DNA of 64,000 nt from Escherichia coli (GTDB lineage: Bacteria > Pseudomonadota > Gammaproteobacteria > Enterobacterales > Enterobacteriaceae): NCBI RefSeq assembly GCF_048403405.1, contig NZ_CP183129.1; one strand, written 5' to 3'. Under the pieces are notes generated by a model, which saw nothing but the letters and a program-made list of their open reading frames with translations, was not told the DNA's origin and made no database searches. The stretch's first letter is position 1. The number at the start of each line of letters is the position of its first letter. The position numbers and the translations under genes were made by a program. Of the stretch, positions 1 through 32,807 are shown piece by piece.

Positions 1-468
1 ATCTGCTCGGTGTACCGCGAAAGCGACATCGTACCGGGAGAGCAGACCGCCACCAGCATATTGAAACAACGCACAAAAAATCTTGCACCGTTGCCTTACG
101 CCCACCAGCAACAAAAACCACCACAGGAAAAGACGGTGGTAAGCATCAACGTTGATCCAGAGTCTCCGGAATCTTTCATGAAGCTGCCTAAACGTCGCCG
201 CTGGGTTAAGGAGAAATACACTCGTTGGGTTAAGACACAGCCGTGTGCTTGCTGCGGTATGCCAGCCGACGATCCGCATCATCTGATTGGTCACGGGCAG
301 GGCGGAATGGGAACAAAAGCACATGATCTCTTTGTGTTGCCTTTGTGCAGAAAGCATCACAACGAGCTGCATACGGATACAGTGGCATTTGAAGAGAAGT
401 ATGGCTCCCAACTGGAGCTGATATTTCGTTTTATCGATCGCGCGCTGGCAACTGGCGTACTGGCGTAA
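1..468 (+). CDS. ydfU: DUF968-family prophage protein (YdfU-like), C-terminal part; 5-prime end outside window
   Basis: Frame open from position 1; HNH-like Cys/His motifs (CACCGMPADDPHHLIGHGQGG, CRKHHNELH); sits directly upstream of Q as in K-12 Qin. Confidence 0.7.
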   Translation: MCSVYRESDIVPGEQTATSILKQRTKNLAPLPYAHQQQKPPQEKTVVSINVDPESPESFMKLPKRRRWVKEKYTRWVKTQPCACCGMPADDPHHLIGHGQGGMGTKAHDLFVLPLCRKHHNELHTDTVAFEEKYGSQLELIFRFIDRALATGVLA

Positions 469-481
469 GTGGAGAACGAGC

Positions 482-1234
482 ATGAACCTTGAAGCCTTAC
501 CAAAATATTACTCCCCAAAATCTCTAAAATTGAGCGATGACGCTCCAGCGACAGGCACCGGTTGTTTAACAATTACGGATGTAATGGCAGCGCAGGGGAT
601 GGTGCAGTCGAAAGCACCACTTGGGTTGGCCTTATTTCTGGCAAAAGTTGGTGTTCAGGACCCTCAGTTTGCGATTGAAGGCCTGCTAAATTACGCGATG
701 GCACTGGATAACCCGACATTGAACAAATTGAGTGAAGAAAGCCGGTTACAGATTATTCCTTACCTCGTGAATTTTGCCTTTGCTGATTACTCCAGGTCTG
801 CGGCAAGTAAGGCTCGCTGTGAGCATTGTTCAGGTACGGGATTTTATAATGTATTGCGCGAAGTGGTGAAACACTACAGACGCGGGGAATCTGTAATCAA
901 GGAAGAATGGGTAAAGGAACTATGTCAGCATTGCCATGGTAAGGGCGAAGTCAGCACAGCGTGCAGAGGGTGTAAGGGTAAAGGGATTGTTCTGGATGAA
1001 AAAAGAACCCGGTTTCATGGCGTACCGGTATATAAGATTTGTGGGCGTTGTAATGGAAACCGGTTTAGTCGTTTACCGACCACGCTGGCACGACGTCATG
1101 TCCAGAAGCTGGTACCAGACCTGACCGATTATCAGTGGTATAAGGGGTATGCGGACGTCATTGATAAACTGGTAACAAAGTGCTGGCAGGAAGAAGCATA
1201 CGCGGAAGCGCAATTGAGGAAGGTGACGAGATAA
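482..1234 (+). CDS. quuQ: late-gene antiterminator Q
   Basis: 250 aa, near-identical to recalled K-12 QuuQ ([14 protein letters not shown]...), with Cys-rich zinc-binding motifs. Confidence 0.85.
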
Positions 1235-1337
1235 ATGATTTTTGCTGAAGATGGCGACATGATGTTTGCATTTTTCAAAAAACATGGATAAGATTTTCTC
1301 AACGATGGGCTTTGTGTATCCGACGTTTAGAAAAAAG

Positions 1338-1367
1338 TAGAAAACCCGCTTATAAGCGGGTTTTTGT
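1338..1367. terminator. hairpin plus T-run between quuQ and the csp remnant
   Basis: aaaacccgcttataagcgggttttt: GC stem, loop, U-tract; readable on both strands. Confidence 0.5.
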
Positions 1368-1399
1368 GCTTTAAATGGGGCAATAGAGATATTGAATCT

Positions 1400-1611
1400 C
1401 ATCCCGGGATAAACATTGGCAGTTGAAGGTCCACGCGAACCATTTATCCGGCAAAATTCCACGCGTAATCCTGTGGTAATTTCTTCTGCATCTCGAAGAT
1501 TGAGAGCTGAAACGTGAAGCTGGGCATCGATACGCCATCGGATGGGAATATAAGACCTTTGCTGCTTTTGTAGTCAAAGTTTTTGACAATTCCTGTCATT
1601 TTAGGGGACAG
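1400..1611 (-). pseudogene. cspF/cspH-family cold-shock gene remnant (start codon lost, 1-bp deletion, stop lost)
   Basis: Minus-strand frame gives [22 protein letters not shown], then the next frame gives [42 protein letters not shown]; ancestral ATG position reads CTG; no stop after ANVY. Confidence 0.6.
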
Positions 1612-1909
1612 AAAAACTCCTTAATACTGATAACCTGGTGCACCATACACACGTTCCTGGAGAAAACTACTTTTTTGATAGGGTTGAAGGTGGCTGGATG
1701 TCTAAAATAAACATTGCTTCATATGTTCAACTATGAGTTAATGACTGCGTCGGTTTGAAGAACAGACGATATACGAAGTAGTTTACTAAAGCAGTTCTCA
1801 TTTCAGGTGTTATTCACTTATTCCTTCTTTGAGTCTCTCCAATTAAGTACGAAGTCGTTTCTGTTATGCAAACCATTTATGCCGAAAGGCTCAAGTTAAG
1901 GAATGTAGA

Positions 1910-2125
1910 ATGTCAAATAAAATGACTGGTTTAGTAAAATGGTTTAACGCTGATAAAGGTTTCGGCTTTATTTCTCCTGTTGATGGTAGTAAAGATGTGT
2001 TTGTGCATTTTTCTGCGATTCAGAATGATAATTATCGAACCTTATTTGAAGGTCAAAAGGTTACCTTCTCTATAGAGAGTGGTGCTAAAGGTCCTGCAGC
2101 AGCAAATGTCATCATTACTGATTAA
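1910..2125 (+). CDS. cspB: cold-shock protein, CspB-like
   Basis: 71 aa, [38 protein letters not shown]... with RNP motifs; long AT-rich 5-prime UTR; terminator downstream. Confidence 0.85.
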
Positions 2126-2405
2126 AATTCATCGCTCGTCTGTATACGATAACGAAGAAGGCTGATGCCTGAGTAGAGATACGGACAGAGTAGTGAATAT
2201 TGGATCTCTTTAATAAAAAGTAAGGAGGTCCAATACATGAAACAATGGCCAGCATATTTGGCAAAATCTTAATCAGGAAAAGTATGCTAACCATTGTGGT
2301 GAAGTGCAGGTTTGCTGCATGAATAGTTTCACAGCAGAAGCTAACTGCTGGCATCGCAAAACAAAGTGCGTAAGTGGATGACTCCCACAAAAAGCACCAC
2401 AATCT

Positions 2406-2429
2406 CAAACCCGCTCAGGCGGGTTTTTT
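2406..2429 (+). terminator. rho-independent terminator after cspB
   Basis: aaacccgctcaggcgggtttttt. Confidence 0.6.
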
Positions 2430-2488
2430 ATTATCTGCTTTAAATATATTATTAAAATATAAAAAATACTTGTTACTAATAAAATCAA

Positions 2489-2660
2489 TCAGGCTACAGC
2501 TTTAAGATTTGTCTGGAATACTTTGTTGCAATGAGGGCAGATCAAAAGGGCACCTTTTTGTACTCTTGAAAAACTGTGTTCTGACTCTTGGGTGCAGTTT
2601 GGGCAGGAACATTTAACGAGATAATTACGGCGTGATTTTGAGTCTTTACGTTCTGACATA
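2489..2660 (-). CDS. small zinc-ribbon protein (56 aa), probably the YnfU equivalent
   Basis: MSERKDSKSRRNYLVKCSCPNCTQESEHSFSRVQKGALLICPHCNKVF...; two CxxC pairs; AGGA about 8 nt upstream of the ATG. Confidence 0.5.
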
Positions 2661-2878
2661 GGCTTTTCCTGTATAAATGGCCGTATACAGTACACTAAAT
2701 ATGAAAACATTTCTCGTATTATTATTTTATATGTGACTTTCTTTCAAAATAATTACCCACATTTTTAATGTGTATGTTTTTTTAGCGCCGTTGAGAACAA
2801 CGTGTGCTGTCAAAACTACCCCGTAGACTCCGATCTTTTCAAACATATTGCACCATCCGTGTACATCGGGGTGAGGAT

Positions 2879-3094
2879 ATGAAATCAATGGATAAGTTAA
2901 CAACAGGTGTTGCCTATGGCACATCGGCGGGTAATGCTGGTTTCTGGGCATTGCAGTTACTCGATAAAGTAACTCCGTCACAGTGGGCTGCAATCGGTGT
3001 GCTGGGTAGCCTGGTTTTTGGCCTGCTGACGTATCTGACAAATCTTTATTTCAAGATTAAAGAAGACAGGCGTAAGGCTGCGAGAGGAGAGTAA
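2879..3094 (+). CDS. essQ: phage 21 S-type holin (pinholin) with dual-start motif
   Basis: 71 aa, [26 protein letters not shown]...[15 protein letters not shown], matches recalled S21; Met1 and Met4 give the holin/antiholin start pair. Confidence 0.85.
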
Positions 3095-3098
3095 TCCA

Positions 3099-3650
3099 AT
3101 GACTCAAGACTATGAACTGGTTGTGAAAGGAGTCCGTAATTTTGAGAATAAAGTTACGGTAACTGTAGCCTTACGGGACAAAAAACACTTTGACGGTGAA
3201 ATTTTTGACCTGGACATCTCGCTGGACCGTGTTGAAGGTGCCGCGCTGGAGTTTTATGAGGCAGCAGCCAGAAGGAGCATCAGACAGGTCTTCCTGGATG
3301 TTGCTGCCGGGTTATGTGAAGGGGATGAGCAGTCGCCGGAAAAGCGCCCCATAATTTTAGAGGCGCAGAATGTGTGGATAACCTACAAAGGAAAGCTACC
3401 GGGAAGAATTACTGGTTCTCTGAAGACGCCACCGACGGCATTGCGGTCAGAAAAAGATGATATTGAATCGCCCATTGAAAAACTGGAGGGCAGCGTCGCT
3501 GATCTGAATAAAAAATTGTCGGTGCTGATTCCTTCTGAAGATGAAAAAAAACGCCGCGATGAGCAGTTTGCGGCGTTTTACGATTATTGCATTGAAGTTA
3601 CTCGCAGGAATTTTGTGAAGATTTTTGAGGAGGGTAAATCTCTTCAGTAA
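3099..3650 (+). CDS. YdfR-like protein with divergent, extended C-terminus (183 aa)
   Basis: N-terminal ~75 aa match recalled K-12 YdfR (MTQDYELVVKGVRNFENKVTVTVAL...); remainder differs and is longer than the 103-aa K-12 protein; lies between holin and endolysin. Confidence 0.55.
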   Translation: MTQDYELVVKGVRNFENKVTVTVALRDKKHFDGEIFDLDISLDRVEGAALEFYEAAARRSIRQVFLDVAAGLCEGDEQSPEKRPIILEAQNVWITYKGKLPGRITGSLKTPPTALRSEKDDIESPIEKLEGSVADLNKKLSVLIPSEDEKKRRDEQFAAFYDYCIEVTRRNFVKIFEEGKSLQ

Positions 3651-3858
3651 GCTTATTGGCGGACGCTGCAATTAATTCAGGAAGGTCCGCAAGGTCATCT
3701 GTCAGTGGATATGATGAAAAATCGGCGGCAGTTCTGTTAAGAAGCGCTTTAACTAATTCCTTTTCCTTCTCCGGCAACAAGTTGATTAGAGCTACGACTG
3801 CTTGCCTGAGTGCGATTAAATCAGCAAAAGTTTGTTTAGGTAGATTTGTGTAATCCAT
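3598..3858 (-). CDS. hypothetical acidic 86-aa protein, convergent with and overlapping the 3-prime end of the YdfR-like ORF
   Basis: ATG with AGAGG about 7 nt upstream; predicted helical, acidic; no recognised family. Confidence 0.35.
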   Translation of the reverse strand: MDYTNLPKQTFADLIALRQAVVALINLLPEKEKELVKALLNRTAADFSSYPLTDDLADLPELIAASANKLTEEIYPPQKSSQNSCE

Positions 3859-3971
3859 AGTCGCCTCTGTGTTTATCAGATTGACATCCTCCTCCCGCCA
3901 GTGCCCATCACTGGTGAGGTAAGATTTAACATATCCGGGGATTTGAAGCCGATAAATCCTGATAAATATCC

Positions 3972-4999
<1,028 letters not shown>

Positions 5000-5362
5000 A
5001 TTAATATTAAATCGGATTATTTTTAGCGCTGAATGTGAAATTTAAATAAAAAGGACTCTTCCATGAGTCAAAATCCTTGAAATCTTAAGGGTAAGATAAA
5101 AGGTCATTAGACAGAATGACACGTTTTATTAATAAATAAAGCTATTGTTTCATTCGTGTGTTTTTCTTTACAAAAGTAATCCTTGCTATGGTTGGTTAAT
5201 CATGCGTTAATGGTGTTCTGGTTTGTTACAAAATTATCTGAAGCAGTCATTGTTATAATTTTATTATTTGTACCTCTTGAGATTTCCTTGTTGGTTTTTC
5301 TCTCTGATATTTTTTTTCGGACCATTCTGCCCAAGGGCTAACTTCTTCAAAAGGTAATAATG

Positions 5363-5575
5363 ATGTCTAACAAAATGACTGGTTTAGTGAAATGGTTTAA
5401 CCCTGAAAAAGGTTTTGGTTTCATCACGCCGAAAGATGGTAGCAAAGATGTGTTTGTCCATTTCTCAGCTATTCAGAGCAACGATTTCAAAACGTTAACT
5501 GAGAATCAGGAAGTCGAATTTGGTATTGAGAACGGACCTAAAGGCCCCGCGGCTGTTCATGTTGTGGCACTTTGA
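5363..5575 (+). CDS. cspI: cold-shock protein, CspI-like
   Basis: 70 aa, [43 protein letters not shown]...; long AT-rich leader. Confidence 0.85.
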
Positions 5576-5775
5576 GGTAGATAATATTACAAACCATATT
5601 CACTTTAGATGCCCGTGTTGCCATGGTTCTCAGTATAGAACATCATCTTTTGATGTTTCTGACAGGAATCCTTTCGGGGCAAAATGTATCTTTTGTAAAT
5701 CAATGATGATTACATTTGATAATATTTCACAATACTTAAATGTTAGCCGTCTATCGTTAGATTTAAGAAAGTGAA

Positions 5776-5801
5776 AATGAAGGCTCCTTCGGGAGCTTTT
5801 T
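5776..5801 (+). terminator. rho-independent terminator downstream of cspI
   Basis: gaaggctccttcgggagcttttttt. Confidence 0.55.
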
Positions 5802-5846
5802 TTCTTAGTGTCTAGTCGATGGATACTCACATAATACGGTAACATT

Positions 5847-6077
5847 ATGAAAAAAATAATAGTTTTTTTTAACTCTGAACCAGCAATGGTAGTGCCAGTG
5901 ATGACCGGAGTTAACACCATCATGCGTGAATATCCAAATGGCGAAACAACACACCTCACTGTAATGGCTGCAGGGTTTCCATCTCTGACCGGAGATCATA
6001 AAATCATTTATGTAGCAGCGGATCGACATGTAACTTCAGAAGAAATTCTGGAAGCAGCAATGAGACTCTTGAATTGA
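5847..6077 (+). CDS. hypothetical small protein (76 aa) between cspI and gnsB
   Basis: ORF with upstream purine-rich stretch; occupies the ynfN position of K-12 Qin; identity not confirmed. Confidence 0.45.
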   Translation: MKKIIVFFNSEPAMVVPVMTGVNTIMREYPNGETTHLTVMAAGFPSLTGDHKIIYVAADRHVTSEEILEAAMRLLN

Positions 6078-6249
6078 TTTGATTCTAATGCATTGATAAT
6101 AAATGATAATCATCTTTATCTGTTTGTGTGAAATTTAGACCGTCGTATGTTGATTATTGCGATGTTTCATCTTATCTTTTATACGTTTGCTCCATATAAT
6201 TGACACTACTGTGTACCAGGAAAGTCATAACAGACTAAAAGAGGAAATG

Positions 6250-6423
6250 ATGAACATTGAAGAGTTAAAAACAAAAACAGAAGCAGATATTTCTGAATAT
6301 ATAACAAAAAAAATCATTGAGCTTAAGAAAAAGACCGGGAAAGAAGTTACCAGTATCCAGTTTACTGCACGGGAAAAAATGACTGGTCTTGAAAGCTATG
6401 ATATCAAGATTGATTTAATCTAG
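6250..6423 (+). CDS. gnsB: GnsA/GnsB-family small protein
   Basis: 57 aa, MNIEELKTKTEADISEYITKKIIELKKKTGKEVTSIQFTAREKMTGLESYDIKIDLI; close to recalled GnsB. Confidence 0.8.
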   Translation: MNIEELKTKTEADISEYITKKIIELKKKTGKEVTSIQFTAREKMTGLESYDIKIDLI

Positions 6424-6716
6424 TCTGTTTAGTATTAGCATCAATTTCTCATCAGATGCTATTCAACAATACAAATTACCCATAAACCTCGTTTTTACGG
6501 GGTTTTGTTATATTTAAACATTACCGAATAGGTATAAATCTCGATTGTCGATGGTATTGGTTGTGTGACAATACCTAGTCTTTCCGGTATGCCTGATGAG
6601 AATACAAACGACAGATTATGTAAGGGAAACGCGCTGAATCTTTAACTCTTTCATGCTGAGTGATTTGACGTTATATTTTTAGCCGTAAGTGAAGAGCAAA
6701 CGCATGGAGCGACAAA

Positions 6717-6923
6717 ATGCATAAAGATCAATACACTGATGCCCCCTCCCAGGAGCAGGTTCGTGTAAAAACTATGCTTAATAGCACCATTTCGATGGGT
6801 TACCCGGATGTTGTAATTGCATGTATAGAACATCAAGTGTCTCTGGAAGCATTCAGGGCAATTGAGGCCGCGTTAGTAAAGCACGATAAGAATACGAAGG
6901 ATTATTCCCTGGTGGTTGACTGA
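6717..6923 (+). CDS. hypothetical protein (68 aa)
   Basis: ATG preceded by GGAG; no family recognised. Confidence 0.35.
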
Positions 6924-7286
6924 TCACCATAACTGCTAACCATTCTGACCATTTCACAAGTGACAGAGTCAATATCGTATTCTGTCACTGTCAGGCTAAT
7001 ACAGCAATGCAATTCAACTACAGCAATGCCTCGTATTTAGGTGAATTTACAATATCGTCCAGTTCGGATGCCGGCTGCATTTCTGAAGATAAGGCATTTC
7101 GGTTCTCGTATTTTCCCCTCATGCTCGTCAGTCCTGCGCGTAGTAAGAAACAGGACACTCACACTAATTTGTGTGGGCATGCTGTGATGTCCTTCTGAAT
7201 TATCCCCATGCCATTATGTAAAGCTCTGTTAAAGATGCTCGTCACGGTTGTCAGGCTGTCGGGTCCTCCCAGTGGGGGGCCCTGCC

Positions 7287-7306
7287 ACGGGGCGGGAGCG
7301 TCGCGG
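7287..7306. promoter_or_regulatory. cohesive-end site (cosN-like) for terminase
   Basis: ACGGGGCGGGAGCGTCGCGG closely parallels lambda cosN context ACGGGGCGGCGACCTCGCGG; lies ~185 bp upstream of the terminase small subunit start, as in lambda. Confidence 0.65.
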
Positions 7307-7473
7307 AAAAAGGCTAGTTTTTGCATTTCCATGGCGGCGGCAGCATGTTTGGTAATTTATTGATAATTAAAAGTTATTTCCCTTTTCACCTGTACAATAT
7401 TTTTTTCTTCCTGTCATTAGACCAGTTTGCAATTAATTGAAATATATAAATAAACCTGATTTTCACCTGCCAG

Positions 7474-8013
7474 ATGGAGTTGCTTATGTCAAATGTGAGC
7501 GGGATCGGTGATGCTTATTACTGGAGTGTTTTTAAAATCGCCGAGGCCTTTGGGCTTCACCGGGACACAGTAAAAAAACGGCTCCTCGCGGCCAACACTC
7601 CTGTGGCTGCGACTGTCAGGGGGAACCCCGTTTACGCCCTGCAGCATGTCGGGCCCGCCCTGTTTAGTGTGAAGCATGAGGCAGCAGACTCTGTTCATGA
7701 TCCATCCCGTATGGAGCCGAAAGAGAGAAAGGACTGGTACCAGTCTGAAAATGAAAGGATCAAGCTGGAAAAGGAGCAGCGAAAACTCATCCCAGTTGAT
7801 GAAGTAGTCATCGTCTATTCGTCCATGAGAAAGGCTGTCGTCCAGGTTCTGGAGACAATTCCGGATGTTCTTGAACGCGATTGCGCTCTGACTCCTCAGG
7901 CCGTCGGCGTTGTACAGCAGGCCATTGATGACCTGCGATACACTCTTCAGGAAAAATCCTACGAGGCTTGTGCTGCTGAATTAATTCCTGATGAGGAAGG
8001 AGAGAGTCTCTAG
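7474..8013 (+). CDS. terminase small subunit
   Basis: 179 aa; N-terminal helix-turn-helix (SVFKIAEAFGLHRDTVKKRL); immediately upstream of the large subunit and downstream of cos. Confidence 0.7.
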   Translation: MELLMSNVSGIGDAYYWSVFKIAEAFGLHRDTVKKRLLAANTPVAATVRGNPVYALQHVGPALFSVKHEAADSVHDPSRMEPKERKDWYQSENERIKLEKEQRKLIPVDEVVIVYSSMRKAVVQVLETIPDVLERDCALTPQAVGVVQQAIDDLRYTLQEKSYEACAAELIPDEEGESL

Positions 8014-8021
8014 GAGGAATA

Positions 8022-10121
8022 ATGGGTTTTTCATCAGCCCGAAATTTGGGAAGGGACATATCGGCAGGATTTTCCCCACCACGTCGCATGCCGATTTCGG
8101 AGGCTGTTAAAAAATTCATGCGTGTTCCCAAGGGGGCTGGTAACTCGGTGCCATGGGATCCTGAACTGACACCCTACATCATTGAGCCCATGAACTGCCT
8201 GGCATCGCGTGAATACGATGCGGTGATTTTTGTTGGTCCTGCGCGAACAGGGAAGACCATTGGTCTGATCGATGGATGGATTGTCTATACCATCGTTTGC
8301 GATCCTTCGGACATGCTCGTTGTGCAGATGACCGAAGATAAGGCCCGCGAGCATTCTAAAAAGCGCCTCGACAGAACGTTCAGAAGCAGTGCGGCGGTAA
8401 AGAAAAGAATGAGTCCACGTCGTAACGACAATAATGTCCATGATAAGACGTTCAGGGATGGCTCGTTCCTTAAAATTGGTTGGCCCTCGGTCAACATTAT
8501 GTCGTCGTCGGATTACCGGTTTGTCGCCTTAACCGATTACGACCGTTTTCCGGAGAATATCGACAGCGAGGGTGATGGTTTCTCCCTGGCCTCAAAACGT
8601 ACCACCACATTTATGTCCGCCGGGATGACTCTGGTGGAGAGCTCGCCGGGACGTGACATCTGCGACAGCAAATGGCGACGTAAGTCGCCTCATGAAGCGC
8701 CACCGACGACTGGTATTCTTTCCCTTTACAATCGTGGTGACCGCCGCCGCTGGTACTGGCCATGTCCGCACTGCGGTGAATATTTTCAGCCAGCTATGGA
8801 TGCCATGACCGGCTACCGTAATGAACCGGATCCCTTTAAAGCCAGTGAGGCGGCGTATCTACTTTGCCCGCACTGCAGCGGCATTATCACTGCGGAGAAA
8901 AAGCGTGAGCTCAATAGTGCAGGAGTCTGGTTGCGTGAAGGTCAGGTCATTGATCGTAACGGCAACGTTTCCGGTGAACCGCGCCGCTCCCGTATCGCCA
9001 GTTTCTGGATGGAAGGGCCAGCTGCTGCGTATCAGACCTGGGCGCAACTGGTTTACAAATTACTGACTGCAGAACAGGAGTATGAAGCGACAGGAAGCGA
9101 AGAAACACTCAGGGCGGTTATCAACACCGACTGGGGATTGCCTTATCTTCCTCGTGCCAGCATGGAGCAACGAAAAAGTGAACTGCTTGAGCAGCGGGCA
9201 GAGCCAGTTCCTTCCTGCAGTGTGCCGGATGGCGTTAATTTCCTTGTGGCGACAGTGGATGTGCAGGCGGGACGTCATCGCCGTTTTGTGGTTCAGGTAA
9301 CTGGCTATGGCAGTCGTGGCGAACGCTGGATTATTGATCGTTACAATATCACGCAGTCATTGCGCAGTGACTGCGACGGGGAGAGCCAGCGAATTGATCC
9401 GGCCAGCTATCCGGAAGACTGGGATGTCCTGCTGACGGATGTTTTTCATAAAAGCTGGCCGCTGGCCTCCGATCCTTCTCAACAAATGCGACTGATGGCA
9501 ATGGCGGTGGACTCCGGCGGTGAAGACGGGGTCACTGATAATGCCTATAAATTCTGGCGTCGTTGCCGTCGTGATGGCCTTGGTAAACGTATTTACCTGT
9601 TTAAGGGCGACAGCATCCGGCGCGCAAAACTGATCACCCGTACATTCCCTGATAACACCGGACGAACGGGCCGACGGGCGCAGGCCGCAGGTGATGTGCC
9701 GCTCTGGCTTCTTCAGACGGATGCACTGAAAGACCGGGTGAATAACGCGTTATGGCGTGACTCGCCAGGTCCCGGCTATGTGCATTTCCCTGACTGGCTG
9801 GGGAGCTGGTTTTACGACGAACTGACGTATGAAGAGCGGAGCAGTGACGGGAAATGGAGTAAGCCGGGTCGCGGTGCCAACGAAGCTTTTGACCTGATGG
9901 TGTATGCCGAGGCTCTGGTCATTCTGCATGGATACGAAAAGATCCGCTGGCCGGATGCACCGGAGTGGGCGAGCCGGGAAACCTGGCTGGAGTGTGTCCC
10001 GGACAGTACCGAACCGTCACCCTCACCGGAACCGGTATCCACGCCTGTTAAAAAACAAAAACGGAAGAAAACAGTAACTGACGATGTTAACCCCTGGCTG
10101 ACTTCCGGAGGATGGTTATGA
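8022..10121 (+). CDS. terminase large subunit (lambda GpA family)
   Basis: 699 aa; Walker A motif GPARTGKT; C-terminal nuclease-like region; gene order. Confidence 0.9.
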   Translation: MGFSSARNLGRDISAGFSPPRRMPISEAVKKFMRVPKGAGNSVPWDPELTPYIIEPMNCLASREYDAVIFVGPARTGKTIGLIDGWIVYTIVCDPSDMLVVQMTEDKAREHSKKRLDRTFRSSAAVKKRMSPRRNDNNVHDKTFRDGSFLKIGWPSVNIMSSSDYRFVALTDYDRFPENIDSEGDGFSLASKRTTTFMSAGMTLVESSPGRDICDSKWRRKSPHEAPPTTGILSLYNRGDRRRWYWPCPHCGEYFQPAMDAMTGYRNEPDPFKASEAAYLLCPHCSGIITAEKKRELNSAGVWLREGQVIDRNGNVSGEPRRSRIASFWMEGPAAAYQTWAQLVYKLLTAEQEYEATGSEETLRAVINTDWGLPYLPRASMEQRKSELLEQRAEPVPSCSVPDGVNFLVATVDVQAGRHRRFVVQVTGYGSRGERWIIDRYNITQSLRSDCDGESQRIDPASYPEDWDVLLTDVFHKSWPLASDPSQQMRLMAMAVDSGGEDGVTDNAYKFWRRCRRDGLGKRIYLFKGDSIRRAKLITRTFPDNTGRTGRRAQAAGDVPLWLLQTDALKDRVNNALWRDSPGPGYVHFPDWLGSWFYDELTYEERSSDGKWSKPGRGANEAFDLMVYAEALVILHGYEKIRWPDAPEWASRETWLECVPDSTEPSPSPEPVSTPVKKQKRKKTVTDDVNPWLTSGGWL

Positions 10122-10330
10122 ACCAGAATGATATCGAAGCCATGATTCAGCGTTATACGGAAGCTGAAATGGCGGTGCTGGACGGAAAATCCGTCACCTT
10201 TAATGGTCAGCAGATGACCATGGAAAACTTATCTGAGATCCGGCAGGGACGGCAGGAGTGGGAGCGCCGCCTTGCGGCTCTGATTACACGACGACGGGGG
10301 CATCCCGGGTACCGGCTGGCGAGGTTCTGA
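10112..10330 (+). CDS. head-tail joining protein (gpW-like)
   Basis: 72 aa; C-terminal RRRGHPGYRL resembles lambda gpW tail; position between terminase and portal. Confidence 0.7.
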   Translation: MVMNQNDIEAMIQRYTEAEMAVLDGKSVTFNGQQMTMENLSEIRQGRQEWERRLAALITRRRGHPGYRLARF

Positions 10331-13810: not shown

Positions 13811-13896
13811 ACGTCGCAGACAACAACTCTGATGGCCCGTAAGGGCTTTTTTTGTACCTGAAATCAGCCCCTGAACGGGGCTGTGCGGAGACAGTT

Positions 13897-14488: not shown

Positions 14489-14499
14489 AGAGGTGTGGG

Positions 14500-20064: not shown

Positions 20065-20393
20065 TGGAGACGTTTCACTGGAAAGTGCGCCCGGATATGA
20101 ATGTGGTATCAGAGCCGAAAGTGGTGACAGTGAAGCTGGGCGATGGTTATGAACAGCGTCGTGCGGCGGGACTGAATAACCAGTTGTCGACTTACAGCGT
20201 GACGATACGTGTTCGTAAATGTGAACACCCATCTTTAAAAGCCTTTCTGGAACGGCACGGTGGCGTCCGTGCATTTCAGTGGACGCCACCTTATGACTGG
20301 AAACCGATCAGGGTGGTTTGTCGTAAATGGTCGGCAAGCGTGGGGGCGCTGTGGGTAACCATAACGGCAGATTTTGAACAGGTCGTGGCATAG
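20064..20393 (+). CDS. minor tail protein M
   Basis: 109 aa; size and position as lambda M. Confidence 0.85.
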   Translation: METFHWKVRPDMNVVSEPKVVTVKLGDGYEQRRAAGLNNQLSTYSVTIRVRKCEHPSLKAFLERHGGVRAFQWTPPYDWKPIRVVCRKWSASVGALWVTITADFEQVVA

Positions 20394-20402
20394 GAGGCTC
20401 TG

Positions 20403-22395: not shown

Positions 22396-22398
22396 TGA

Positions 22399-25850
<3,452 letters not shown>

Positions 25851-25917
25851 ATTTTATAACCCATATACGGGCGCCAGAAATGGCGCCTTTTTTATTGCAG
25901 AAAAGCGAGAGGTAATT

Positions 25918-26517
25918 ATGCGTAAAGTTTGTGCAGCCATTTTGTCCGCAGCCATCTGTCTGTCCGTATCCGGTGCGCCTGCATGGGCATCTGAACATCA
26001 GTCCACGCTGAGCGCGGGGTATCTTCATGCCTCGACGAACGTTCCCGGCAGCGATGATCTTAACGGGATTAACGTGAAATACCGTTATGAGTTTACGGAC
26101 ACACTGGGGCTGGTGACGTCATTCAGCTATGCAGGAGACAAGAATCGCCAGCTTACCCGTTACAGCAATACCCGCTGGCATGAAGATTCCGTGCGTAACC
26201 GCTGGTTCAGCGTGATGGTGGGGCCGTCTGTGCGCGTGAATGAATGGTTCAGCGCGTATGCGATGGCGGGTATGGCTTACAGCCGTGTGTCGACCTTCTC
26301 CGGGGATTATCTCCGCGTAACTGACAACAAGGGGAAAACGCACGATGTGCTGACCGGAAGTGATGACGGTCGCCACAGCAACACGTCTCTGGCGTGGGGG
26401 GCTGGCGTGCAGTTTAACCCGACCGAATCCGTGGCCATTGACCTTGCTTATGAAGGTTCCGGCAGTGGTGACTGGCGCACTGACGGTTTCATCGTGGGTG
26501 TCGGTTATAAATTCTGA
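25918..26517 (+). CDS. lom: Lom/Ail-family outer membrane protein
   Basis: 199 aa; signal peptide; beta-barrel C-terminal ...GVGYKF; own terminator; classic position after J. Confidence 0.85.
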
Positions 26518-26542
26518 TTAGCCAGGTAACACAGTGTTATGA

Positions 26543-26572
26543 CAGCCCGCCGGTTCAGGCGGGCTTTTTTGT
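26543..26572 (+). terminator. rho-independent terminator after lom
   Basis: cagcccgccggttcaggcgggctttttt. Confidence 0.6.
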
Positions 26573-26581
26573 GGAGTGGAT

Positions 26582-28987
26582 ATGGCAGCAGTAAAAATCT
26601 CAGGTGTGCTGAAAGATGGTGCGGGAAAACCAATACAGAACTGCACTATTCAACTGAAGGCAAAGCGTAACAGCACCACGGTACTGGTGAACACGGTGGC
26701 CTCTGAAAATCCGGATGAAGCCGGGCGTTACAGCATGGATGTTGAGTATGGCCAGTACAGCGTTATCCTGCTTGTTGAAGGTTTTCCGCCTTCACATGCC
26801 GGAACCATTACCGTCTATGAAGGTTCCAGACCAGGTACGCTGAATGATTTTCTCGGTGCCATGACGGAAGATGATGTCATGCCGGAGGCATTGCGTCGTT
26901 TTGAGGAAATGGTGGAAGAAGCGGCACGCAACGCCGAAGCCGCCTCTCAGAGCGCAGCGGCGGCAAAGAAATCCGAAACTGCAGCGGCATCATCAAAGAA
27001 CGCGGCGAAAACCTCAGAAACGAATGCAGCTAATAGTGCACAGGCGGCAGCGACCTCAAAGACTGCATCGGCAAACTCCGCGACAGCAGCCAAAAAATCA
27101 GAAACCAACGCGAAAAATAGCGAGACAGCCGCAAAGACGAGCGAAACCAACGCAAAGTCCAGCCAGACGGCAGCGAAAACCAGCGAAACGAATGCCAAAG
27201 CCAGTGAAACTGCGGCAAAAAACAGCCAGGTTGCAGCAGCCCAAAGCGAGAGCGCGGCAGCCGGTTCTGCGACTTCAGCAGCTGGATCAGCAACTGCTGC
27301 GGCTAACAGCCAGAAAGCTGCGAAGACGAGTGAAACTAACGCAAAGTCCAGCCAGACGGCAGCGAAGACCAGCGAAACGAATGCCAAAGCCAGTGAAACT
27401 GCGGCGAAAAGCAGTCAGGATGCAGCGGCCCAAAGCGAGAGTGCCGCAGCCAGTTCTGCAAGCGCGGCGGCTGCTTCTGCCACTGCATCAGCTAACAGTC
27501 AAAAAGCAGCAAAAACCAGTGAAACCAACGCAAAGGCGAGCGAGACTGCGGCGGCGAACTCGGCGCAAGCATCGGCAGCAAGCCAGACAGCAGCTAAAGC
27601 AAGTGAAGACGCAGCCAGAGAGTATGCAAGCCAGGCAGCGGAGCCGTATAAACAAGTTTTGCAGCCGTTGCCCGATGTGTGGATACCGTTTAATGATTCA
27701 CTGGATATGATTACGGGCTTTTCGCCATCATATAAAAAAATTGTTATTGGCGACGATGAAATAACAATGCCTGGCGACAAGATTGTAAAGTTTAAACGCG
27801 CATCGAAAGCAACTTACATTAATAAATCTGGTGTGCTGACAGAGGCTGCCATTGACGAGCCACGATTTGAACGTGATGGCCTGCTTATTGAGGGGCAAAG
27901 AACTAACCTGCTAATCAATTCAACAAATCCGACTAAATGGAACAAGTCGTCAAATATGATCTTAAGTGCATCAGGTGTAGATGATTTCGGATTCCAGTAC
28001 GCAAAATTTACATTAAAACCAGAAATGGTAGGGCAAATTTCAGCGATTAACATAGTAACCGTTTCCGGCAGTAAAGGTTTTGATGTAACAGGCGGAGAAA
28101 AGTATGTAACCATATCATGCAGGGTGCAAAGTGGCACTCCAAATTTAAGATGCCGATTACGATTTGAAAACTATGATGGTTCTACCTACACATTCTTAGG
28201 TGACGCTTACTTAAATACGACAGATTTATCTATTGATAAGACGGGTGGTGCCGCTAATCGCATTACTGCAAGGGCTGTTAAAGATGAAGCAAGCAAATGG
28301 ATCTTTTTTGAGGCGACAATTAAGGCACTTGATACAGAAAATATGATAGGTGGAATGGTTCAGTATGCCCCGGCAAAAGGAGTGGGCACTGGCGCGGATG
28401 ATTATATTTATATTGCGACCCCTCAAGTTGAAGGTGGGGCGTGCGCTTCATCGTTTATTATAACAGGCGCATCCCCTGTAACACGCGCCAGCGATATTGT
28501 AACGGTCCCCATTTCTCTAAATTGGTGCAATCCCGCTATTAGTTCATTAGCAGAAGTTAATACCAATTGGGATGAATCGCCAAACAAAGAAGGTAGCGCA
28601 CGTATTCTTAATATTTCCACTACGGGAGATACAACTGAAATTGCAGATGAAAGTTATATGTATTTGGGGTATACATCTTTGGGAGCACGCGCAATCATTA
28701 CAAATGGTAAAGGCACTAAAATAGAATATAAAAGCGTTATAGAACGACCAGAGAGAAAAAGCATTATCGGCTTTAGATTCACAGAAAGTCGAGAATTGTG
28801 TGTTGTGGTTAACGGTAATATTGGTGCTAAGGTAGTTTCTCCTTATAAAAAACACAAATATACAGGAGGCTTCATTAATATTGGTGGTCAATCATCATCC
28901 GGCAACCGTCACCTATTTGGACACGTTCGAAATCTGCGTATTTGGCACAAGGCATTGACTGATGCTCAGATGGGGGAGTCAATCTAA
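26582..28987 (+). CDS. stf: side tail fibre protein Stf with a replaced, low-GC C-terminal receptor-binding module
   Basis: N-terminus MAAVKISGVLKDGAGKPIQNCTIQLKAKRNSTT... matches recalled lambda Stf; Ala/Ser/Thr-rich repeats; C-terminal ~440 aa of lower GC with a possible lectin-like motif. Confidence 0.85.
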   Translation: MAAVKISGVLKDGAGKPIQNCTIQLKAKRNSTTVLVNTVASENPDEAGRYSMDVEYGQYSVILLVEGFPPSHAGTITVYEGSRPGTLNDFLGAMTEDDVMPEALRRFEEMVEEAARNAEAASQSAAAAKKSETAAASSKNAAKTSETNAANSAQAAATSKTASANSATAAKKSETNAKNSETAAKTSETNAKSSQTAAKTSETNAKASETAAKNSQVAAAQSESAAAGSATSAAGSATAAANSQKAAKTSETNAKSSQTAAKTSETNAKASETAAKSSQDAAAQSESAAASSASAAAASATASANSQKAAKTSETNAKASETAAANSAQASAASQTAAKASEDAAREYASQAAEPYKQVLQPLPDVWIPFNDSLDMITGFSPSYKKIVIGDDEITMPGDKIVKFKRASKATYINKSGVLTEAAIDEPRFERDGLLIEGQRTNLLINSTNPTKWNKSSNMILSASGVDDFGFQYAKFTLKPEMVGQISAINIVTVSGSKGFDVTGGEKYVTISCRVQSGTPNLRCRLRFENYDGSTYTFLGDAYLNTTDLSIDKTGGAANRITARAVKDEASKWIFFEATIKALDTENMIGGMVQYAPAKGVGTGADDYIYIATPQVEGGACASSFIITGASPVTRASDIVTVPISLNWCNPAISSLAEVNTNWDESPNKEGSARILNISTTGDTTEIADESYMYLGYTSLGARAIITNGKGTKIEYKSVIERPERKSIIGFRFTESRELCVVVNGNIGAKVVSPYKKHKYTGGFINIGGQSSSGNRHLFGHVRNLRIWHKALTDAQMGESI
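27100..27560. repeat. about 2.4 tandem copies of a 189-bp (63-codon) in-frame repeat inside stf
   Basis: cgcaaagtccagccagacggcagcgaa(a/g)accagcgaaacgaatgccaaagccagtgaaactgcggc recurs at 27151 and 27340. Confidence 0.7.
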
Positions 28988-29268
28988 TGAAAGATTTAAC
29001 ACTCAAATTTGCCGACAGGGCCGACTTTTCGGCCTTTATGGGAAGTATTGGCTATTATAATGACGAGTCGATGCAGGATGATATTCTGATTGATGTGATA
29101 GGTAACGTGTACAAAGAAACCGGAGAGCTGACTGAAGATGGCGAACCGGTATGTGTTAAGGAAGATGGATATTTTGTAAACGTGCGCATCATTAAGGATA
29201 CGCAAATATCGTCATTATTCGATGAATACGTGGTTGCTGTTGAGCATCAACTTCGTGGCTGGATGTGA
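28987..29268 (+). CDS. ORF-A: small acidic protein (93 aa), function unknown
   Basis: ATG overlaps the stf stop (TAATG); about 19 Asp/Glu versus 8 Lys/Arg; no family recognised. Confidence 0.5.
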   Translation: MKDLTLKFADRADFSAFMGSIGYYNDESMQDDILIDVIGNVYKETGELTEDGEPVCVKEDGYFVNVRIIKDTQISSLFDEYVVAVEHQLRGWM

Positions 29269-29277
29269 GGAAGAAAA

Positions 29278-30318
29278 ATGGCTACATCGACAGTAATTCC
29301 TGATGACATCAAAACGCTAAAATCCGACGTTAGCAAATTAAAAAACGATCAAGGAAGCTACGCAACAAAATTATATGTAGACAGCAAAGATGAAATCGTT
29401 GGTGACTGGTCTGCTTCATGGTATCAGCAGGTATTGCCAACTAGCGGAGCTATATTTGGGAGAAAACTCCGCTCAACTCACAGGACGGCAGGTGTTGAGG
29501 ATGCGTATTGCGAACTATACCTCAAAAAATGGATAGACAGTCCAGGTAACGCAATGGCGCGCCTTAACCTGAACGATAACGGGACAAACATTTGCTGGGA
29601 CTTTACCAACCTTTATGGCGGTACGATGATTTTTCCCGGTGACAGCGGATACCTCAAAATGGGTAACTGCCTTATGTCATACAGCAAGCGTGGAAGTAAC
29701 GCGCTTATTAAATTTGATTACACCGACACATTACAGATCAAATATGCCAATCATGGGTCAACCATGACATTAAACACACAGGGAACCGCTTATGCTGGTG
29801 TTACTGCTCAATTGTGGGGCAACTCCAGCCGTCCTGTTGTTTATGAAGTCGGTGTTGATGGTGGCGCTTATATGTTCTATGCGCAAAAAAATACCGATAA
29901 CACCTATATGTTAAGCGTTAATGGTGCATGTCATGCCACCGCATTTAACCAGCATTCCGACCGGGATCTGAAAGACAACATTCAGGTGATCGATAATGCA
30001 ACCGACCGCATCCGTAAAATGAACGGCTATACATACACGCTTAAAGAAAACGGTATGCCCTATGCTGGTGTCATTGCACAGGAAGCTCTGGAAGCAATCC
30101 CAGAAGTTGTAGGTTCCGCAATGAAATATCAGGACGGCGCAAGCGGATCGGAAGGTGAAGAAGGTGAACGTTATTACACAGTAGATTATTCTGGTGTTAC
30201 TGGCTTGCTTGTTCAGGTAGCCAGAGAGTCAGACGACAGAATAACAGCACTGGAAGAAGAAAACGCAGAATTAAGACAAAGATTATCTGCAATTGAGGCG
30301 GCGCTTGCGTCTAAATAA
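29278..30318 (+). CDS. ORF-B: fibre/tailspike-like protein (346 aa) with C-terminal intramolecular-chaperone (peptidase S74-like) domain
   Basis: RBS GGAAG; C-terminal SDRDLKDNIQ...YTYTLKENGMPYAGVIAQEALEAIPEVV...coiled-coil ITALEEENAELRQRLSAIEAAL, the pattern of autoproteolytic fibre chaperone domains; hairpin aggggccgagcgcccc after the stop. Confidence 0.6.
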   Translation: MATSTVIPDDIKTLKSDVSKLKNDQGSYATKLYVDSKDEIVGDWSASWYQQVLPTSGAIFGRKLRSTHRTAGVEDAYCELYLKKWIDSPGNAMARLNLNDNGTNICWDFTNLYGGTMIFPGDSGYLKMGNCLMSYSKRGSNALIKFDYTDTLQIKYANHGSTMTLNTQGTAYAGVTAQLWGNSSRPVVYEVGVDGGAYMFYAQKNTDNTYMLSVNGACHATAFNQHSDRDLKDNIQVIDNATDRIRKMNGYTYTLKENGMPYAGVIAQEALEAIPEVVGSAMKYQDGASGSEGEEGERYYTVDYSGVTGLLVQVARESDDRITALEEENAELRQRLSAIEAALASK

Positions 30319-30360
30319 TATCAAGGGGCCGAGCGCCCCGTTTTATTGGGTAGGATGAAA

Positions 30361-30654
30361 ATGGATATAACACCTTTCCTTCATGCGCTTTGTGCTGTGG
30401 CTGCGCAGCTACTGGTTGGTCTTTTTACCGGGAACTGGGCTTACGGGGCGATAGCCGGTTGTACGTTCTTCATTGCGCGTGAACACACCCAGGCGGAATA
30501 TCGCTGGATTGAAATGTTTGGGCATGGCAAGAGGATTAACATGCCGTGGTGGGGCGGTTTTGATCCGCGCGTGTGGGATGTGGCAAGCCTGATGGATTTT
30601 GCTGTGCCGGTGGTGGCGTGTCTGCTGGTCTGGCTGTTGGTTAATCGTGGGTGA
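30361..30654 (+). CDS. ORF-C: small membrane protein (97 aa; 2-3 predicted transmembrane segments)
   Basis: Hydrophobic stretches ALCAVAAQLLVGLF, GAIAGCTFFIA, VPVVACLLVWLLV; AGGA 5 nt upstream of ATG; start could also be 30346 or 30355. Confidence 0.5.
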   Translation: MDITPFLHALCAVAAQLLVGLFTGNWAYGAIAGCTFFIAREHTQAEYRWIEMFGHGKRINMPWWGGFDPRVWDVASLMDFAVPVVACLLVWLLVNRG

Positions 30655-30664
30655 AAAAAGGTGA

Positions 30665-30784
30665 GCTGTATATGCAACGGAGGAAGAAACCCCGTTGCTG
30701 GAAGCCTGGAAAAAGTATCGGGTGTTGCTGAACCGTGTTGATACGTCAACTGCACAGGATATTGAATGGCCAGCACTGCCGTAG
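30665..30784 (+). pseudogene. tfa: 3-prime remnant of tail-fibre assembly gene tfa (last ~36 codons only)
   Basis: Frame opening right after the ORF-C stop reads [39 protein letters not shown], matching the recalled lambda Tfa C-terminus; no start codon or N-terminal domain. Confidence 0.7.
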
Positions 30785-30881
30785 GGTAAAACATATAAAT
30801 TCTATAATTAGATGTATCTTTCCATTTACGGCAAGGAAGGGGGCTTGGAAGACGTAAAGCATCTCACACCGAGATTATTTT

Positions 30882-31472
30882 TTATATGTCAGGTGTCTGA
30901 AGTTTTGCTTTGGCTCTTAAAATGGTTTGCCGCGAGGTTTTGAATTCCCGGGCAATGGCACTTATACTTACACCTGACTTAATTCGTTCGAATACCACCT
31001 GTTTCTGTTCTTCATTTAACACAGGTGGTCGACCAAAACGTTTCCCTGCGCCCCGGGCTCTTACTATCCCGGAATGAGTGCGTTCAAGTAAAAGGTCTCG
31101 TTCAAATTCAGCGACTGCTGAAATTACTTGCATCATCATTTTTCCTGTTGGACTGGTCAGGTCAATGCCCCCCAATGCTAAGCAATGCACTCTGATACCT
31201 GTTTCGGTCAGTTGTTCCACTGTTTTCCTGATATCCATTGCATTACAACCAAGGCGATCCAGTTTTGTCACAATCAATTGATCACCACATTTCAGGCGAG
31301 CAAGCAACCGGTTAAAACCAGGACGCTCACTGGTTGCTGCTGAGCCGCTAATGTGTTCTTCGATTATTTGCTGAGGTTTGATTTTAAAACCTGCACTTTC
31401 GATTTCCCGGCGTTGATTTTCGGTGGTCTGATCCAGCGTTGATATCCGACAGTAAGCAAAAATTCGAGACAT
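30882..31472 (-). CDS. pinQ: serine recombinase (invertase/resolvase family), PinQ/PinR-like
   Basis: 196 aa; catalytic-region motif YCRISTLDQ; C-terminal helix-turn-helix; same position as pinQ next to tfa and ydfK in K-12 Qin. Confidence 0.75.
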
Positions 31473-31788
31473 AGTGAGACTCTATACGAAATTGGTGTTC
31501 ATATCATAATGCATCTCAGAAAATAATTTTGATTATTTTTGTGCATGTTTGTATGTACACGTTCGAAAATAAACGAATGCGTATGCAACCCCGTAATTTT
31601 GGTGAGACCCAAAATCGATTTTGTGAAAAATGGCTTTAACTCGGTTTGTTTTTCGAGTTCCGGGCGGACTCAAGGAAGAAGAATAGTGTTGCGTGTTATT
31701 TTAACCAGATTTCAAGTTGTTTGGTCGTGGAAAAGTGGAGCAAAATGTTGTTAAAGTGGAAAAATGATAAAAAAGTAAGTTTATTATA

Positions 31789-32022
31789 TTACATTTTACC
31801 ATTTAAATTTTGGTTGTCTTTAAGAACTGATATCGCTGTTTGTAATAATTCTTTGTTATCCAGCCATGACTTTTTCTTTATGTTTCCTTCAATGTAATCA
31901 AGCAATGTTCTGGTATTGATAGGTCTTCCCTGTTTTGCCACTTCCACGACAGCATCTCCCAGGATAATTCTGACTTCAGGAAGCTGCGCAGGGAACCACT
32001 TTAGGGTGTCTTTTGATTTCAT
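31789..32022 (-). CDS. ydfK: YdfK/YnaE-family cold-shock-inducible prophage protein
   Basis: 77 aa from MKSKDTLKWFPAQLPEVRIILGDAVVEVAKQGRP...; AT-rich leader upstream (higher coordinates). Confidence 0.75.
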   Translation of the reverse strand: MKSKDTLKWFPAQLPEVRIILGDAVVEVAKQGRPINTRTLLDYIEGNIKKKSWLDNKELLQTAISVLKDNQNLNGKM

Positions 32023-32807
32023 GAATATATTCCTTAAAATATTATTGATTTTCATTGCGATATTGTATGTCTGATTCAGGATATGTTGACTTATACATCG
32101 GTTTTGTCTGGGTTATTGGATATGCCAATCCCTAATTTTATTAGAGCATGACTAAAAATGCTGAATATGATAAGGAGCGAAGTGATTATCAGTATGCTGT
32201 TCATATAGCCTCGAATTAGTAATGTGTTATATATGATATAGTTGACAATTTTTATCCTGGGTGTTCTTAAAGTTCGTAGATAAACATTGTCGTTTCAGGT
32301 ATACAGGAATGCTAACAGATGGCGGCAAAAATCAGGCGGTTTATGGCGCAAGCTGAAGTGGCAACTGCAAACTATCTTATGCAGAGACTCTACACGGATT
32401 GGGTTTAAAAGTATACATAGATAACAGTTTTTATCTGAAGAAGAAAAATATCAAGGTGATATAGCCTATATGCCTTTGATGCGGAGGAATGAATGTGATG
32501 GGAGTGATGTATCTGAATAGTTGAAAAACCGCAGACACGCCTTATGCAAGAACGTGCTGCGGTTGGCTGGTAAATTTTTCGATAGTGCGAGTATTGAATG
32601 ATTTCCAGCCGTTATTGATTTTACGCGTAACTCCATGAAAAAACTACTTATCTGTTGAGGAGTTTTTTTGGGGCATATATGGGACAGAAATAGGCCCCAG
32701 ATAGACACTGAGATCGAACTTAGGATGCTTTTTAAAAAATGCAACTATCTGAAAAAACCTAGAAAACGCCAAGGAAACCACAGGATGGGAAAAAACACCT
32801 GTGAATT

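Follow-up and report, generated by a model that had tools for sequence, protein, structure and literature searches.

Functional Qin-type temperate phages of Escherichia coli have already been published. Tritos (OV696610), prophage 3 of the adherent-invasive E. coli (AIEC) strain LF82, is released spontaneously by its host at about 2.8e6 genomes/mL, its virions have been imaged by electron microscopy, and a plaque was obtained on MG1655 hsdR- (PMC9928086). Because it carries dicB, DicF, hokD, ydfU, Q, cspB, cspI, gnsB, Pin and a ydfK-like gene, it is counted here as a full-length Qin-type phage. The functional Qin-like temperate phage mEp460_ev081 likewise has homologues of dicB, dicF, dicAC and rem (bioRxiv 10.1101/2023.04.14.536235). 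We compared these phages and the cryptic Qin prophage of strain K-12 with a stretch of 64,000 nucleotides of an E. coli chromosome (RefSeq assembly GCF_048403405.1, contig NZ_CP183129.1), called the window below. Judged from its sequence, window 1–32816 belongs to a temperate lambdoid prophage with a total length of about 45 kb, of which it represents the right-hand ~33 kb, or ~70%, with the late genes. The overall explanation that fits best, and in which we have good confidence, is a lambda-like prophage of the Qin/Tritos/mEp460 type inserted in the 5' end of ydfJ, an ordinary prophage of a kind that is already described.

Late genes and integration site

The overview was based on a listing of open reading frames (ORFs), on composition and on BLAST comparison with 5426 complete E. 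coli genomes. As ydfU is cut at the left edge, the prophage extends further to that side. Qin-type prophages at ydfJ are common, as at least 80% of window 1–16000 was found in one place in 477 of the 5426 genomes, while the same coverage of window 16001–36000 was reached in 109. Isolated phages matching the structural region are Tritos, PhiR47_1, PhiR55_1, HannyBb, cdtI and mEp460. The alignment of window 7290–25401 with Tritos 1–18111 runs from cos to about residue 1005 of J, with 98.0% identity over 18.1 kb. In the initial annotation, the element was seen as a relative of K-12 Qin that is nearly complete and shares its integration site, and this view is backed by the K-12 alignment, the gene-by-gene comparison with Tritos and the Pfam assignments. 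The packaging, head and tail features are as follows.

7281–7301, + strand: cos, with a putative 12-nt cohesive end GGGCGGGAGCGT at 7290–7301, preceded by CCTGCCACG (7281–7289)
7486–8013, + strand: TerS of the DUF1441 type (phrog_141), 98–100% identical to Tritos, full length
8022/8088–10121, + strand: TerL, 98–100% identical to Tritos; Pfam GpA_ATPase/GpA_nuclease
10118–10330, + strand: W-like protein, 98–100% identical to Tritos, full length
10330–11838, + strand: portal, 98–100% identical to Tritos; Pfam Phage_portal_2
11687–13810, + strand: ClpP protease/major capsid fusion, 98–100% identical to Tritos; CLP_protease and Phage_capsid_4
13852–14220, + strand: cement protein, 98–100% identical to Tritos; Phage_cement_2
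14213–14488, + strand: head-tail protein, 98–100% identical to Tritos, full length
14500–15090, + strand: tail protein Z
15087–15488, + strand: tail protein U
15499–16242, + strand: tail protein V
16300–16689, + strand: tail protein G
16698–17027, + strand: tail protein T, in the -1 frame relative to G, with the same G/T junction sequence as Tritos
16999–20064, + strand: tape measure protein H
20064–20393, + strand: tail protein M
20403–21101, + strand: tail protein L
21107–21850, + strand: tail protein K
21748–22395, + strand: tail protein I

The linear Tritos genome starts at the base corresponding to window 7290 (GGGCGGGAGCGT followed by CGCGG) and has CCTGCCACG at its right end; its bases 1–60 are 100% identical to window 7290–7349. 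The genome of phage cdtI also begins at window 7290, and the string ACG-GGGCGGGAGCGT-CGCGG resembles lambda cosN in register, GGGCGG....T followed by CGCGG being common to both. Besides cos, the prophage has intact TerS, TerL, portal, protease-capsid and head-completion genes, as belong to a cos-packaging siphovirus of the Tritos/mEp460 type. The tail proteins Z, U, V, G, T, H, M, L, K and I each align with their Tritos counterparts in a single full-length high-scoring segment pair (HSP) at 94–100% identity, and each matches a lambda-family Pfam model. The cos, terminase, portal, capsid and tail genes listed in the initial annotation are therefore present, as the full-length HSPs at 94–100% identity to Tritos and the expected Pfam families attest. 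Its statement that the prophage "retains" them was worded too loosely, since the ancestor of K-12 Qin would have carried different packaging and fibre modules. Except for J, all genes with a Tritos homologue are full length and nearly identical, the non-structural ydfR being a longer allele. A tblastn scan of every Tritos and K-12 protein against the window revealed only J, cspF and the absent ynfS as standing out.

The right end of the prophage was located by comparison with K-12. MG1655 1625212–1634421 aligns without a break to window 39884–30673 (98.2% over 9.2 kb), covering dcp, ydfG, rspR, ydfZ, ydfI, ydfJ', the right Qin junction, ynfT, ydfK, pinQ and the last 111 bp of tfaQ. Because this alignment runs through the junction, the integration site is that of K-12 Qin, as had been proposed, and the chromosome continues to the right of the prophage with ydfJ', ydfI, ydfZ, rspR, ydfG and dcp. 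No tRNA genes, either as an integration target or as phage cargo, were found within the window. The features of the junction and the right arm are the following.

30882–31472, − strand: pinQ, serine recombinase, 99% amino acid identity to K-12 PinQ; Pfam Resolvase and HTH_7
31789–32022, − strand: ydfK, 99–100% amino acid identity to K-12
32091–32204, − strand: ynfT, 99–100% amino acid identity to K-12
32802–32816: attR core GAATTATGGATTTC, inside the 5' end of ydfJ, from aligned attL, attR and attP
32808–34091: truncated ydfJ reading frame

Inspection by eye of the attL, attR and attP alignment gave a 14-nt att core with one variable position, and it equals the Tritos attP apart from one position. 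With the attL sites of MS 69-1 and UID2309220033, the longest exact string in common is TTATGGATTTC, 11 nt at 32806–32816. Homology to the Tritos attP stops at 32816–32819, and the boundary of K-12 Qin corresponds to about 32818. The end of the prophage had previously been placed at 32807, which indeed lies inside the att core; we set the end itself at 32816.

The C-run deletion in J and the left arm

In lambda, gpJ's Ig-like C-terminal receptor-binding domain (RBD) recognises the receptor, and binding to LamB was suggested as the trigger for opening of the tail and ejection of the DNA (PMC11101478). The J gene of the prophage is affected by the frameshift that the initial annotation had reported, the one visible defect of the prophage in the window.

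22456–25850, + strand: J, tail-tip/central-fibre gene, with ATG at 22456 and a 1-nt deletion in a C run

We located the deletion by comparison with the intact allele of strain Ecol_316, which has CCCCC where the window has CCCC at 25470–25473; this is the only indel in the J alignment. Beyond the deletion, the frame that starts at 22456 reads 54 aberrant codons and stops at 25632, and the out-of-frame part 25473–25850 encodes PF12421 (Ig_GpJ_C, E 1.2e-37), the RBD of J. In its own frame, the RBD is 98–99% identical to the J proteins of phage PhiR55_1 and many long-tailed Shiga toxin (Stx) phages, and the NCBIfam model lambda_TipJ was matched at its positions 1–1036 of 1163 only. A viable siphovirus has a complete in-frame tail set including the RBD of J; here Z through I are intact and J is broken. 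If the lesion is true, it should abolish infectivity, not induction.

We regard the J lesion as probably a real mutation, because the chromosomal flank shows no indels against MS 69-1 and no further phage gene has lost its frame. Over 31.8 kb (32183–64000), the flank differs from the independent MS 69-1 assembly by four single-nucleotide polymorphisms (SNPs) and no gaps (99.99%), although it contains 156 homopolymer runs of at least 5 nt and 97 C/G runs of at least 4 nt; it is essentially identical in MS 69-1 and five other genomes. The MS 69-1 prophage at the same site has an intact J, and only cspF and the tfa remnant are annotated as pseudogenes there.

Several points weigh against reading the element as an assembly-competent prophage with a genuine lesion in J. 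In 39 unrelated complete-genome records, the best match is to the exact C4 allele of J (vs. 1681 for the exact C5 allele), the J backbones of the C4 carriers are 69–108 SNPs apart, and this pattern would fit recurrent slippage and systematic homopolymer sequencing error equally well. Furthermore, tail assembly with a J protein truncated at about residue 1005 is a step that this reading has to suppose, and the immunity, int/xis and replication region lies to the left of the window, outside the sequence that was read.

The C4 carriers include O157:H7 86-24, ST131, enterotoxigenic E. coli (ETEC), strain Ch1, avian and other strains. Taken as a technical matter, the scatter of the same 1-nt loss over 39 unrelated assemblies would be typical of recurrent error, as would the J gene of Ch1, which differs from the intact Ecol_316 gene by one SNP plus the C gap. 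The prophage would then be fully intact, the frameshift representing a homopolymer assembly error or a minority variant in a functional Tritos-like phage, which agrees with everything else in the window being in frame by tblastn against the Tritos proteins. We consider this unlikely, as the 31.8 kb of flank without indels, the lack of any other frameshifted phage gene and the shortness of a C5 tract for a systematic error all speak against it.

The deletion was also considered as a marker of a single clone, which was rejected because the carriers diverge in J backbone and chromosomal background. The recurrence of an identical deletion on different backbones and backgrounds might further suggest that the C5 tract at the fibre/RBD boundary of J is a recurrent, possibly selected inactivation point across unrelated E. 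coli lineages, but we rate this as highly improbable. Equally far-fetched is the more specific form that the C run serves as a selected on/off switch or favoured inactivation target by which the host keeps the cargo and disarms infectivity. The 39 cases stand against 1681 intact alleles, a contingency locus would be expected to have a tract longer than 5 nt, the surroundings give no evident sign of regulation, and neutral slippage or sequencing error accounts for the pattern as well. If the C5 tract were such an inactivation point, resident lambdoid prophages would repeatedly lose infectivity through it while keeping their cargo and particle genes.

For the left arm, we turned to related prophages, in which it spans 12–19 kb with int, xis, exo, ydfD, dicB, a DicA/CI-type repressor gene, cro, ydaT, replication genes, a variable defence-like gene, hokD and rem. 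It is complete in the clonally related MS 69-1, without pseudogene flags, and in UID2309220033; in KK19-02 the DUF977 gene is frameshifted and ydfB is partial, the rest of the arm being complete. The dicAC-type immunity genes, the dicBF operon, the rem antirepressor gene and hokD are present in MS 69-1, KK19-02, UID2309220033 and Tritos. The element might still be cryptic through lesions outside the window that hit the genes for integrase, excisionase, immunity or replication, as is the case in K-12 Qin, whose left arm contains an intQ pseudogene, an IS2 remnant and a truncated ydfE. The two defects in KK19-02 and the decay already seen in cspF and J of the window prophage point in this direction. 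Nevertheless, we think it improbable, given the left arm without pseudogene flags in MS 69-1, which differs by only 4 SNPs in the 31.8 kb flank, the complete arm of UID2309220033, and the 99.1% identity of the first 3.3 kb of the window to MS 69-1.

Returning to the reading of a lysogen with a genuine J lesion, a left arm as intact as in the close relatives would allow derepression to be followed by excision, replication, Q-dependent late transcription, cos packaging, assembly and lysis. The resulting particles would lack the receptor-binding tip of J and be non-infectious or nearly so, and infectivity could be regained by C4-to-C5 reversion, by recombination or by complementation with J from another lambdoid prophage in the same host. 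Independently of this, the cargo (cold-shock proteins, GnsB, Lom and PinQ) would stay expressed from the lysogen. As for assaying induction, the K-12 Qin promoter dicBp, which DicA represses, was not induced by mitomycin C (bioRxiv 10.1101/2023.04.14.536235), and in LF82 ciprofloxacin strongly induced only Gally and Cyrano, while trimethoprim slightly lowered Tritos production (PMC9928086). Because dicBp stayed uninduced and neither ciprofloxacin nor trimethoprim had Tritos among the prophages that it induced, these reports argue against mitomycin C as a suitable assay for Qin-type phages, for which SOS inducers should not be relied on.

Side fibres, cargo and chromosomal flank

Downstream of J, the prophage carries lom and a side-fibre module.

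25918–26517, + strand: lom, Ail/Lom outer-membrane protein, a moron; Pfam Ail_Lom, E 2e-120
26588–28987, + strand: stf; Pfam phage_tail_N (PF08400)
28987–29268, + strand: 93-aa ORF
29278–30318, + strand: 346-aa fibre protein with a Peptidase_S74 intramolecular chaperone domain
30361–30654, + strand: 97-aa membrane ORF with hydrophobic segments; phrog_1443
30673–30783, + strand: 111-bp remnant of the 3' end of tfa, tfaQ codons 156–191 only (30674–30781)

The fibre-region ORFs gave full-length matches to phrog_1419, phrog_1361, phrog_4563 and phrog_1443, whereas NCBIfam provided no names for the small ones. The fibre order is identical in Tritos, and the last three ORFs are 95–99.7% identical. 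The replacement of tfa, which the initial annotation had excepted, next to the J frameshift, from an otherwise potentially inducible look, does exist in that only codons 156–191 of tfaQ remain, but it is not a lesion, as the plaque-forming Tritos has the same arrangement. By this comparison, a fibre module without tfa should not be counted as damaged; plausibly, a fibre with its own chaperone domain does not need Tfa. Behind the gene for the 346-aa fibre protein lies a strong hairpin resembling a terminator (region 30316–30654), and the 97-aa ORF that comes next is a candidate moron conserved in Tritos. In stf, nested 21-nt and 189-nt tandem repeats are present at 27074–27553, where divergence from Tritos peaks.

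A Pin/Gin-type invertase gene lies beside the fibre genes, and we considered the fibre region as a segment invertible by PinQ, in the manner of the invertible tail-fibre segments of Mu (G), P1 (C) and e14 (P). This was rejected, as no convincing inverted crossover sites of the pix/gix type flank the fibre genes (the best candidate being 17 nt at 88%), no opposed alternative genes are present, and all fibre ORFs lie on one strand. Because of the lack of such sites around the fibre region, PinQ has no evident local substrate; in K-12, PinQ inverts the P segment of e14 in trans (PMC12529663).

The left part of the window contains the antitermination, lysis and cargo genes.

1–468, + strand: 3' part of ydfU, cut by the window edge, 97–98% amino acid identity to K-12 YdfU and Tritos
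482–1234, + strand: late antiterminator gene quuQ/ydfT, 97–98% amino acid identity to K-12 YdfT and Tritos; Pfam Antiterm PF03589, E 1e-54
1412–1611, − strand: cspF pseudogene, frameshifted and 3'-truncated, with split tblastn HSPs
1749–2125, + strand: cspB with a cspA-type 5' untranslated region (5'UTR); Rfam RF01766, 158.8 bits
2489–2659, − strand: ynfU
2879–3094, + strand: holin gene essQ, 100% identical, full length; Pfam P21 holin
3099–3650, + strand: ydfR, long 183-aa allele (DUF1327), phrog_2091 over 183/183 positions
3598–3858, − strand: 86-aa ORF, phrog_2572 over 86/86
3972–4505, + strand: endolysin gene rrrQ, 93% identical, full length; Pfam Phage_lysozyme
4502–4999, + strand: spanin gene rzpQ, Rz 90% identical, full length
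4695–4949, + strand: spanin gene rzoQ, Rz1 95% identical, full length
5205–5575, + strand: cspI with a thermoregulator 5'UTR
within 5205–6923, after cspI, + strand: ynfQ, ynfR and ynfN
6250–6423, + strand: gnsB
6717–6923, + strand: YbcW-like 68-aa ORF, phrog_657

The match of this cargo to K-12 Qin holds for quuQ/ydfT, cspB, ynfU, essQ, rrrQ, rzpQ/rzoQ, cspI, ynfQ, ynfR, ynfN and gnsB, and on the right arm for pinQ, ydfK and ynfT (81–100% amino acid identity), but not for cspF, which is broken, nor for ynfS, which is deleted. A 258-bp deletion relative to K-12 at 1409/1410, which also occurs in Tritos and MS 69-1, removed ynfS together with the 3' end of cspF. Two cspA-type thermoregulator 5'UTRs (RF01766) precede cspB (1749–2141, 158.8 bits) and cspI (5205–5621, 112.8 bits). 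Between holin and endolysin genes, a segment of ~650 bp (3305–3961) with the 86-aa ORF is found neither in K-12 nor in Tritos; at 3099–3961 the short ydfR of these two is replaced, phrog_2091 and phrog_2572 being families of unassigned function. The long ydfR was considered as a further lesion, since PGAP calls it "incomplete" in a relative, and was rejected because it matches a longer PHROG family over its full length.

Compared with its nearly invariant flank, the prophage of the window (1–32182) differs from that of MS 69-1 in patches of 89–99% identity at the 5' end of the TerL gene, the lysis genes, the 3' end of J with lom, and stf. Such patchy divergence in one clonal background indicates that the prophage has recombined recently, and it is typical of recombination among lambdoid prophages. 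Within the flank, the alignment with K-12 ends at 39884, and no ydeJ follows dcp, only a remnant annotated as 2-oxo-tetronate isomerase in the clonal relative (~39800–39890). Between eamA and marB, which we take to be adjacent in K-12, the segment at ~44430–50610 carries, by the MS 69-1 annotation, genes for a GntR regulator, the phosphotransferase system (PTS) components IIB, IIC and IIA, a carbohydrate porin and a 6-phospho-beta-glucosidase. The PTS IIA gene (47101–47412) bears an "internal stop" flag in MS 69-1 and translates without an internal stop in the window. The Hfq-binding small RNA STnc560 was detected at 41674–41887 in the dgcZ-mgtS region (281.9 bits); together with the csp 5'UTRs, it was the only match of the Rfam scan.

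Comparison with lambda, mEp460, Tritos and K-12 Qin

The window prophage resembles lambda in its gene order from cos through J-lom-stf, in its cosN-like sequence and in the Pfam families of TerL, portal, Z, U, V, G, T, H, M, L, K, I, J and Lom. It lacks the Nu1 TerS and the C/Nu3/D/E head that mark Lambdavirus, having instead a DUF1441 TerS and a ClpP-protease/capsid fusion with a cement protein, and it further differs from lambda in the side-fibre tip and chaperone, in the integration site and in having a Pin recombinase. Its structural modules match those of mEp460/mEp460_ev081 and cdtI (95–97% DNA identity over 77–79% of window 7000–30800), whereas the early regions and cargo of mEp460 and cdtI are different, cdtI carrying cdt genes. 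NCBI taxonomy places mEp460 in Limmatquaivirus, Zimmerviridae, a placement that covers mEp460 only and not the window prophage.

Tritos shares not only the late genes from cos to J with the window, but also the right arm, consisting of stf, the 93-aa ORF, the S74 fibre gene, the 97-aa ORF, the tfa remnant, pin, ydfK and attP (98.7%), and the Qin-type cargo with Q, cspB, holin, endolysin and Rz genes, cspI, ynfN and gnsB. Its left arm contains dicB, DicF, hokD and ydfU. The two differ in several segments. The J of Tritos is intact and ends in a different RBD allele (37% amino acid identity over the last ~130 residues). The Tritos alignment is interrupted between 25472 and 26565, and the window prophage has its own RBD allele of J plus lom in this segment (25473–26564); lom is missing from Tritos and also from K-12 Qin. 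Tritos carries ybcV, and the window prophage has neither ybcV nor ydfO. Finally, Tritos has a short ydfR that lacks the inserted 86-aa ORF, and the middle of stf is divergent (74% amino acid identity overall).

For K-12 Qin, the whole-prophage alignment that had been proposed was run with MG1655 1625001–1658000 against the window and yielded four common blocks, the early region lying outside the window. The blocks extend from ydfU' to quuQ (window 1–1409, 98.2%), from cspF to the start of ydfR (1410–3304, 97.1%), from rrrQ to gnsB (3962–6558, 91.1%), and from the last 111 bp of tfaQ through the junction to dcp (30673–39884, 98.2%). Both elements thus have in common the ydfU-quuQ-cspF/cspB-ynfU-essQ-rrrQ-rzpQ-cspI-ynfQ/R/N-gnsB block at 91–98% identity as well as the attR junction and the right arm with ynfT, ydfK, pinQ and the 3' end of tfa at 98.2%. 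K-12 Qin has neither cos nor a large terminase subunit, any head or tail genes or lom, all of which are found in the window prophage, whereas it keeps nohA, stfQ, a full tfaQ, ynfO, ydfO and intact cspF and ynfS, in which the window prophage differs.

In view of the common blocks on both sides of the missing region (91–98%), K-12 Qin could be imagined as a simple internal-deletion derivative of exactly the window architecture that lost everything from cos to stf. We consider this very unlikely, because K-12 nohA, stfQ, ynfO and ydfO gave no tblastn match in the window at E<=1e-3, the match of tfaQ is confined to residues 156–191, its last 36 codons, and the DUF1441-type TerS of the window is not matched by K-12 NohA, which we take from the K-12 annotation to be a Nu1 homologue. 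As nohA, stfQ, ynfO and ydfO have no homologue in the window, the ancestor of K-12 Qin would have had different packaging and fibre modules. Read from these alignments, K-12 Qin is a decayed mosaic cousin with scraps of other packaging and fibre modules, not a deletion derivative of the window architecture, and the window offers a view of a K-12 Qin-like element with its late half whole, whose importance lies mainly in annotation.

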